Virus record (IMG/VR): IMGVR_UViG_647533160_000006
Location: 1-41,987 of that record
DNA length: 41,987 nt
Reading direction: 5' to 3' (one strand)
Source: a virus
Lineage: Duplodnaviria; Heunggongvirae; Uroviricota; Caudoviricetes
Position numbers and translations under genes: made by a program. How positions within the stretch are numbered: the first letter of the stretch is position 1; every line of letters starts with the position of its first letter. Of this stretch, positions 13,954 to 14,691 are shown piece by piece. The notes beneath the pieces were generated by a model. It searched no databases and was not told the DNA's origin. It was given only the letters and a program-made list of their open reading frames with translations.

Positions 13954-14453
13954 TATTCGCTCCCGTTATCGCAAGGTTCCTTTCGGTGGAAGTAATTCCA
14001 ACCGTTCCACTTCGCCAACTGGTTACCGCTACCAACAGGCATACGGTTTGGATAACCGGACTTACATTTAGCGGCTTTTGCTCTGTCCATTGCAGACAGT
14101 TTGACGAGTCGCTCTTTCCCGTATCTGGCAGTGGTTATAAGTTTTGCAGGCGCTTCCAGCGCATAATCCGGTGCAATGCGGCAGGCAAGGTTGAAAATGA
14201 CAGCATTGATAGCGTTATTTGATAAACCGTGCTCATCGCCAGGATCTGGAGCGACATCTGCATCAGCAAAAATGTAGCCAACGTTGATACCAGGTGACAC
14301 ATCACCGCCAAGCCATTCAGCCATCATCATTTCAAGGTCATTGACGCCGTCTTCCATGGACTGCGGTTCGACATCGGTTAACGTGGCATTTGATGCCACA
14401 CCGAGCTTACGTAATGCCGCAAGGACTAAATCACCCTTCGTTGTCAGGTTCAT
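13953..14453 (-). CDS. Head completion / tail adaptor protein, P22 gp4-like
   Basis: From internal Met [33 protein letters not shown], matching recalled P22 gp4; the track ORF is extended upstream through the repeat. Confidence 0.8.
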
Positions 14454-14691
14454 CTGCTGCCGCCTTAGGTTTTCGACCAGGCTTTTTACGCTGTTTTTCT
14501 TCTGGCTCTGGCTCTGGCTCTGGCTCTGGCTCTGGCTCTGGCTCTGCAACATCCTTCAGAAGATCATCAGGATGTGCAAACCAGCCAGCATCCAGATATT
14601 CCTGAAGCTCTTCGGCTTTCACGATTTCAAAGTCGTATCCAACGCCTTTCCATTTCTTCATGTCGCCATGACGAAAGATCATGTGTGTCAT
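14431..14691 (-). CDS. Small hypothetical protein with (Glu-Pro)7 repeat and basic tail
   Basis: ATG with GGAGA RBS just downstream of the coat terminator; encodes ...[28 protein letters not shown]; overlaps gp4 start; may be non-coding. Confidence 0.4.
14492..14530. repeat. Hexanucleotide tandem repeat (CTGGCT)n, about 6.5 copies
   Basis: Perfect tandem repeat visible directly in the sequence between coat and gp4 genes. Confidence 0.9.

Follow-up and report, generated by a model that had tools for sequence, protein, structure and literature searches.

A hypervariable, frame-preserving Glu-Pro microsatellite is the spacer of an uncharacterised orf69-family protein in P22-like phages

In the genome record of phage P22 (BK000583), the stretch between the coat gene and gene 4 holds an annotated stem-loop and a small gene, orf69, described as 'unknown, putative'. 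The same stretch of phages L and ST64T carries orf186, for which the phage L genome paper gives 'detailed function unknown' (PMC8022706); in the text of that paper, orf186 is not among the 13 proteins named, of the 22 detected in phage L virions. Full-text literature searches returned nothing relevant for P22 orf69, and nothing useful for a small gene between coat and gene 4 or for WDGH, the domain found in orf186. Alternating Glu-Pro runs have been described in TonB, where the Glu-Pro and Lys-Pro runs are polyproline II rods and, according to cited molecular dynamics simulations, may pair as a hairpin (PMC10771500). Here we describe a gene of the orf69 family in which the middle of the protein is encoded by a pure hexanucleotide repeat. 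This hypervariable, frame-preserving Glu-Pro microsatellite is the spacer of a known but uncharacterised orf69-family protein. We consider it likely that the tract is a coding, slippage-prone spacer that belongs to this small gene and lies outside gp4.

The window, by which we mean the whole stretch of 41,987 nucleotides that was analysed, belongs to a phage or prophage of the P22-like kind (Lederbergvirus, IME10-type). Over the morphogenetic genes it is about 95% identical to the closest phage records, those of IME10, APC_JM3.2, HZ41 and the BASEL phages Dewey, Louie and CurroJimenez. The late genes lie on the minus strand in the order portal (16956-19121), scaffold (16031-16942), coat protein of the P22 gp5 type (14736-16031; Pfam P22_CoatProtein, E 3e-166), a small ORF (14431-14691), gene 4, the 166-aa head-tail adaptor (13953-14453; Pfam P22_Tail-4, E 5e-58), and gene 10 (12535-13953). 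Directly after the coat stop is a terminator-like hairpin with a G+C-rich stem of 9 bp and a T-run (14709-14730), and the P22 record has its stem-loop at the equivalent place. The small ORF runs from an ATG at 14689-14691 to a TGA at 14431-14433, with a Shine-Dalgarno GGAG 6 nt upstream of the ATG (14698-14701), and the first 23 nt of gene 4 overlap its end. The likely Shine-Dalgarno of gene 4, TAAGG at 14463-14467, is found 9 nt before the gene 4 ATG, within the Pro-Lys-Ala codons of the small gene's tail. We take the small gene to be translationally coupled to gene 4.

Tandem Repeats Finder detected a single strong array in the whole window, at 14501-14546 (period 6, 7.7 copies, 100% matches, score 92). 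Other perfect tracts with a period of 4 to 11 are at most 18 nt long each, and the chance expectation of a perfect 46-nt tract such as this one is about 4e-20. On the minus strand it contains (GAGCCA)7 at 14503-14544, which encodes (Glu-Pro)7, residues Glu50 to Pro63 of the 86-codon ORF. An initial sequence-only reading had described a perfect CTGGCT array of about 6.5 units just downstream of the coat terminator. The array is indeed perfect, but it comprises 7 full units plus CTG (7.5 in the CTGGCT register) and lies about 165 nt beyond the hairpin, within the small ORF. The same reading had correctly recognised the repeat as Glu-Pro in a small ORF with a ribosome-binding site (RBS) and a basic tail, and the interval it gave for this feature, 14431-14691, matches the ORF exactly. 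Its description of the product as virion-associated found no support in the text on phage L virions cited above. A role of the repeat at the DNA level, as a Chi or Dcm site, was considered and rejected, as neither is present in the hexamer unit.

The 86-aa product of this late-operon gene matches phrog_1175 (E 7e-37, residues 1-84 on positions 1-72 of the 72-position profile) and its close relatives, from E. coli, Salmonella, Klebsiella, Yersinia and metagenomes, number in the hundreds. Over the first 49 codons, the window and 86 related loci together show 28 distinct variants, 16 of them synonymous and 12 non-synonymous (pN/pS 0.18), and 18 of the 28 affect codon position 3. In the other two frames of the strand, these variants give pN/pS values of 2.07 and 1.37, and stops are found in both frames. 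The tail alone gives 0.67, a value derived from only 7 variants. An intact ORF is present in 86 of the 87 sequences (the window and 85 of the 86 loci), as well as in six isolated phages that carry 2 to 8 units. The remaining relative has a premature stop at Trp14, and the small gene is thus dispensable, at least for a resident prophage. The small gene is under purifying selection and its place is kept across P22-like phages. The phrog_1175 match, the low pN/pS and the silent GAA-CCA changes described below confirm that the true coding frame of the repeat is that of the small ORF with its RBS. Searches of Pfam, NCBIfam and PDB sequences with the small protein returned only low-complexity matches to the Glu-Pro run (PARP, TonB, Pks13, mS30), and no nuclease domain was found by the Pfam search. 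A follow-up protein search with the alignment of the N-terminal module returned mostly close relatives.

In a DNA search at lower stringency, the Salmonella P22-like phages matched the end of the coat gene and the start of gene 4, and not the stretch between them. At the protein level, BLASTP aligns the window product with P22 orf69 over both the N-terminal module and the tail (E 3e-9); P22 orf69 itself matches phrog_1175 (4.5e-31), and the window protein, P22 orf69 and L orf186 all match phrog_1175 and phrog_3769. The order portal-scaffold-coat-ORF-gp4-gp10 is kept in relatives with 51-65% identity (from Klebsiella and from a sequencing run), and the start of gene 4 is overlapped by the tail in the window, P22 and L alike. 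Because of this shared plan, the BLASTP and PHROG matches and the same gene order in relatives, the ORF corresponds, in sequence and position, to P22 orf69 and is one of the conserved genes of the P22-type head cluster. Nor is the gene peculiar to this operon; its counterpart is kept at this position across P22-like phages.

Sequence comparison shows a family plan made of a conserved N-terminal module, a freely variable middle and a conserved Lys/Arg/Pro-rich tail. The N-terminal module is MKIAIYKPGGSIMVWGVMAQMKVIDSSELPEYVKDGWLDHP in P22 and MLYKQGRGTKVWGKEVQAKVVDDSDVEDHLDDGWVKHP in L, with a 38-residue counterpart in the window protein, and the basic C-terminal tail is KPRKGRKPKAVSDADKD in P22 and KERKKPGPKPKAESDADKD in L, with a 21-residue counterpart. 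This GW-HP module has the invariant residues G9, G16, G36, W37, H40 and P41 in family alignments and is recognisable across E. coli, Klebsiella, Yersinia, P22 and L. P22 fills the middle with a 13-residue acidic linker, L and ST64T with a whole WDGH domain, and phages of the IME10 type with the Glu-Pro array.

Among 203 distinct relative proteins, the linker always consists of whole dipeptide units, from 1 to 33 of them. The first position of the unit is Glu or Asp in 99% of units, and Pro occupies the second in 88%, with Ser, Gln, Thr or Leu in the rest. The counts in the six isolated phages are 2, 5, 5, 5(+1), 8 and 8 units, eighty IMG/VR loci carry 4-15, and complete E. coli chromosomes were found with 15, 24, 29 and 33. 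The match spans of the 60 best E. coli matches (of 219) imply 5-33 units, and the locus was found in 217 of 5426 complete E. coli genomes (about 4%). One long allele carries a pseudogene flag from an annotation pipeline, although it is intact. The tract also occurs in independent complete genomes, phage isolates and metagenomes, and two unit variants, GAGCCA and GAACCA, have both expanded, independently of each other.

The number of units differs in 12 of 17 pairs of loci whose 1413-nt flanks are identical. In fact, a prophage of E. coli F374 is 100% identical to the window over 455 non-repeat query bases, yet it has 15 units where the window has 7. Since loci with identical flanks differ in repeat count, unit number changes faster than point substitutions accumulate in the 1.4 kb flank. 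A pure microsatellite is expected to behave in this way under replication slippage, which would be the mechanism that alters unit number here. Two earlier suggestions, that the tract is slippage-prone and that copy number may vary between isolates, are thus borne out by a 100%-match array whose count ranges from 1 to 33 and differs between loci with identical 1.4-kb flanks (12 of 17 pairs); the comparison across relatives that had been proposed found a repeat length that is clearly not constant. As the unit is two codons long, the frame is never lost and frameshift switching is impossible. This is not the behaviour of a phase-variable contingency locus: with a 6-nt unit, all 203 linkers are made of whole units and the ORF stays open. 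A full-text literature search with the hexamer in all twelve rotations found no typing scheme or paper on this locus.

AlphaFold2, run with an 11-sequence alignment, predicts residues 1-40 of the small protein with a pLDDT of 90-93. The predicted N-terminal module (residues 1-45, 14557-14691 on the minus strand) has a beta-hairpin (2-14, 17-25), which is followed by a helix (26-34) and then by another, short one (41-49). The linker and the tail have a pLDDT of 51-57 and no predicted secondary structure. Fold searches gave no informative match. An exhaustive phmmer search with the N-terminal module alone returned the small orthologues first, followed by GIY-YIG and HNH proteins. Behind their nuclease domain, these proteins carry three to six copies of a module some 38 residues long (…IWINxxGxxKxIxxxELQxYLDxGWxxG…). 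When compared with hhalign, the N-terminal module and the profile of this endonuclease module align with 95.8% probability and an E of 7e-9, over only 19 columns. Searches with the endonuclease module profile found neither a PDB relative nor a Pfam family. Characterised homing endonucleases bind DNA with the part that follows the nuclease domain.

The C-terminal tail (23 residues and the stop, 14431-14502 on the minus strand) is conserved across 120 relatives, P22 and L. It holds the gene 4 RBS and overlaps the start of gene 4. As its Pro-Lys-Ala codons spell the TAAGG of gene 4, its conservation may be partly at the DNA level, and the embedded start codon and RBS can account for part of it. 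The window tail reads Lys-Lys-Pro-Gly-Arg-Lys-Pro-Lys and lacks the strict Arg-Gly-Arg-Pro core of an AT-hook; only a distant homologue (P0133), with the tail RRGRPPKA, has this canonical core. Because the N-terminal motif may be shared with the endonuclease modules and the tail resembles an AT-hook, DNA binding is the most likely activity of the product, a proposal that we make only tentatively. The protein could then be an accessory, non-essential DNA-binding factor that acts late in infection, around head completion. Its two binding ends would be held apart by a spacer whose length hardly matters; a net charge that swings so widely, by about 1 to 33 extra Glu, sits uneasily with a finely tuned role in DNA binding.

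As in TonB, the Glu-Pro tract is probably an extended spacer of acidic character. By analogy with the Glu-Pro run of that protein, the segment would be stiff and polyproline-II-like. A polyproline II helix extends by about 3.1 Å per residue, from which we infer a spacer of about 4 nm at 7 units and about 20 nm at 33 units. The only NCBIfam matches of the small protein are weak hits to TonB. Membership of the TonB family was rejected, as these hits reach 13.9 bits against a curated cut-off of 315 and are confined to residues 48-76. The resemblance may indicate how the segment works, and not family membership.

Other readings of the locus have to be weighed against a translated spacer of the small gene, and two of them concern the frame in which the repeat is read. 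The sequence-only reading had pointed out that in another frame the repeat would add Gln-Ser to an N-terminally extended gp4, which places the gp4 start at the ATG at 14552 (14550-14552). This frame is open into the body of gp4 (ORF 13953-14552, 199 aa, MLQSQSQS...), and the extended protein is annotated in the public records of RefSeq IME10, Dewey and Louie. Nevertheless, the Pfam P22_Tail-4 domain starts at residue 2 of the 166-aa form, and P22 gp4 and window gp4 align Met1 to Met1 with 61% identity. The upstream ATG directly abuts its only purine-rich stretch, with zero spacer, and is not conserved: three relatives have RTLQ or RLLQ variants instead, and one relative (L078) has a TAG two codons ahead of the gp4 ATG. 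The GAACCA arrays of three loci (L028, L041, L043) are silent in the Glu-Pro frame and change Ser to Asn in the Gln-Ser frame, which upstream of the repeat has a pN/pS of about 2 and contains stops. Finally, the NCBI pipeline calls the 166-aa gp4 together with a 'hypothetical protein' in 60 of the 60 listed complete E. coli genome rows (of 219 matching records). The long ORF exists, but it fails on its start, its alignment and its substitutions, and we rejected the Gln-Ser extension as highly improbable on the basis of the domain start, the P22 alignment, the lost ATG, the TAG and the GAACCA arrays. We give even less credence to a non-coding or assembly-derived microsatellite in an intergenic gap, surrounded by a fortuitous ORF. 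Some annotation pipelines do skip the ORF, and one long allele bears the pseudogene flag mentioned above; this reading has to face an ORF that is intact in all but one of 87 sequences, a PHROG family match, a substitution pattern that is that of a coding frame, linkers that are always whole dipeptide units, and a tract shared by independent complete genomes, phage isolates and metagenomes.

The two remaining alternatives accept translation and differ in what the repeat is for. The small ORF could be a translated leader that carries ribosomes past the coat terminator hairpin to the start of gene 4 and thereby sets the dose of gp4, with a nearly functionless peptide and a repeat that is neutral filler. 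The 23-nt overlap with gene 4, the location of its RBS within the tail codons, the equivalent overlap in P22 and L, and a protein middle that is freely replaceable are all consistent with this reading. We judge it very unlikely, for purifying selection clearly acts on the protein encoded by the first 49 codons (pN/pS 0.18), and the module can be traced through E. coli, Klebsiella, Yersinia, P22 and L and is predicted with high confidence to adopt a fold, which would be unexpected of a mere leader. Alternatively, the array could be an adaptive contingency locus, in which diversifying selection on the length or charge of the spacer tunes the protein and different unit numbers suit different hosts or conditions. 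The spacer could, for example, set the distance between two binding sites or, being acidic, mask the basic tail. Pure arrays with a very wide range of units (1-33), an acidic position kept in 99% of units and the independent expansion of the GAGCCA and GAACCA variants would fit selection of this kind, as would the simulated hairpin pairing of the TonB Glu-Pro and Lys-Pro runs (cited in PMC10771500). In contrast, a six-base unit is unable to switch the gene on or off, late genes of a prophage are without day-to-day selection, and the 13-residue linker of P22 and the whole domain of L at the same place argue for tolerance rather than tuning. The isolated phages (n=6) have only 2-8 units, and the longest alleles are all in chromosomal prophages. 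As P22 and L lack the repeat and the longest alleles are confined in this way, adaptive tuning is disfavoured, and we regard it as unlikely. The more specific proposal that the array is a length- and charge-tuning device of a DNA-binding head-completion accessory protein, as a frame-preserving contingency locus, is quite unlikely in our view; if it were true, slippage would continually yield phage subpopulations that differ in the span of the protein or in the masking of its tail. Under the reading we prefer, that of a slippage-prone spacer in an orf69-family protein, length variation would be mostly tolerated drift and not a switch.

By itself, the finding reveals no new mechanism, and the biological surprise is modest. 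It ties the ORF to P22 orf69, a conserved gene of a very well-studied phage that has never been characterised. Two conserved ends around a replaceable middle also provide a clear design for experiments on that middle. A conflict between public annotations is settled at the same time: the records of IME10, Dewey and Louie omit the small gene, whereas the NCBI pipeline calls it. Finally, a very fast-changing locus present in about 4% of complete E. coli genomes could be used to discriminate closely related P22-like prophages.

The locus can be compared with several known systems. Like coding VNTR loci of enterobacteria and their prophages, which change by replication slippage, it is a perfect array of a short unit, with copy numbers that differ between sequences identical in all else; unlike them, its unit is two codons long and hence does not allow frameshift switching. 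The strand-helix motif of the window protein (12 residues) matches, over 19 columns, the profile of the uncurated module of about 38 residues from the C-terminal parts of GIY-YIG and HNH endonucleases. The window protein differs in that it has only one copy and a longer beta-hairpin, and it lacks a nuclease domain. With the proline-rich rod of TonB it shares an alternating Glu-Pro run followed by a basic stretch rich in Lys and Pro. Unlike TonB, it lacks both a membrane anchor and the TonB C-terminal domain, its short basic part does not form a regular Lys-Pro repeat, and there is no homology between the two. We know of no comparable variation of unit number in TonB.

The closest relatives are those of the P22-like phages themselves. 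Orf186 of phages L and ST64T (phrog_3769) has the same position, N-terminal module and tail (KERKKPGPKPKAESDADKD; KKPGPKPKA) as the window protein, and differs in that the Glu-Pro run is replaced by a WDGH domain (Pfam PF25311, E 2e-40), which is about 100 residues long. P22 orf69 (BK000583; phrog_1175) is only 35% identical to the window protein and has a 13-residue, non-repetitive acidic linker (LLPVEADDV…) where the window has a pure (Glu-Pro)7. The two genes nevertheless have a common position, after the coat gene and its stem-loop and before gene 4, whose start both overlap, and their products share the N-terminal module (ELPEYVKDGWLDHP in P22), the basic tail (KPRKGRKPKA in P22) and an end-to-end match to phrog_1175.

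The hexanucleotide array in the orf69-type gene, the 86-residue reading frame between the coat gene and gene 4 that corresponds to P22 orf69, varies among relatives in the sequence of its unit. Three IMG/VR loci (L028, L041 and L043) carry arrays of 10-13 units made of GAACCA instead of GAGCCA, with flanks that are identical across all three, so in that lineage it is another version of the unit that has expanded. In one relative (L023 1501-1761, IMGVR_UViG_2684622552_000004), Trp14 is replaced by a stop codon in a gene that is otherwise identical and has 7 units, so a resident prophage can lose the small gene. 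Another relative, a 93-residue E. coli protein (P0010), has an internal duplication of 13 residues at the end of the folded N-terminal module.

Database annotation handles the repeat unevenly. RefSeq IME10 (NC_019501.1 25847-26452), Dewey (PQ850600.1 7126-7719) and Louie (PQ850616.1 7126-7713) are annotated with an extended gene 4 of ~195-201 residues that crosses the repeat in the Gln-Ser frame (13953-14552 in the window), and the orf69-type gene is left out of all three. These records look like a mis-annotation that has spread via phage-specific pipelines. The 29-unit allele of L004 (NZ_CP026199.1 4317120-4317365) is flagged as an incomplete pseudogene by NCBI's pipeline, despite translating intact into 130 residues; it seems that the pipeline's protein-alignment step has trouble with long repeats.

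A ~38-residue module (…IWINxxGxxKxIxxxELQxYLDxGWxxG…), which a profile comparison aligned with the N-terminal module over 19 columns, occurs in 3-6 copies after the GIY-YIG or HNH domains of P0129, P0132, P0134, P0136-P0140 and P0142-P0144. It reached no gathering threshold in Pfam, and the PDB holds no relative of it; proteins of the homing-endonuclease-like kind thus seem to carry a repeat that has not been curated. In Dewey, an HNH endonuclease gene (L002 3294-3495; PQ850600.1 5058-5579) directly adjoins the start of the coat gene on the opposite strand. Elsewhere in the window, the reading frame after gene 10 (11687-12535, minus strand, 282 residues) lies where P22 encodes its gp26 tail needle, and Tandem Repeats Finder reports two copies of a 21-bp unit just downstream of it (11099-11140).

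Within the late operon, a strong terminator-like hairpin (14709-14730, minus strand; AAAGGGAGC-TTCG-GCTCCCTTT followed by a T-run) lies 5 nt past the coat stop codon. The P22 record annotates a stem-loop at the matching place, described as 'similar in location to stem-loops in HK97 and lambda'.

A full-text literature search found no paper on the WDGH domain (Pfam PF25311), which also lies at the end of the 310-position profile of phrog_3392. The orf69-family protein of L/ST64T, orf186 (L088 425-985 in phage L cII-101), carries this domain (E 2e-40) exactly where the window protein has, instead, its Glu-Pro run.
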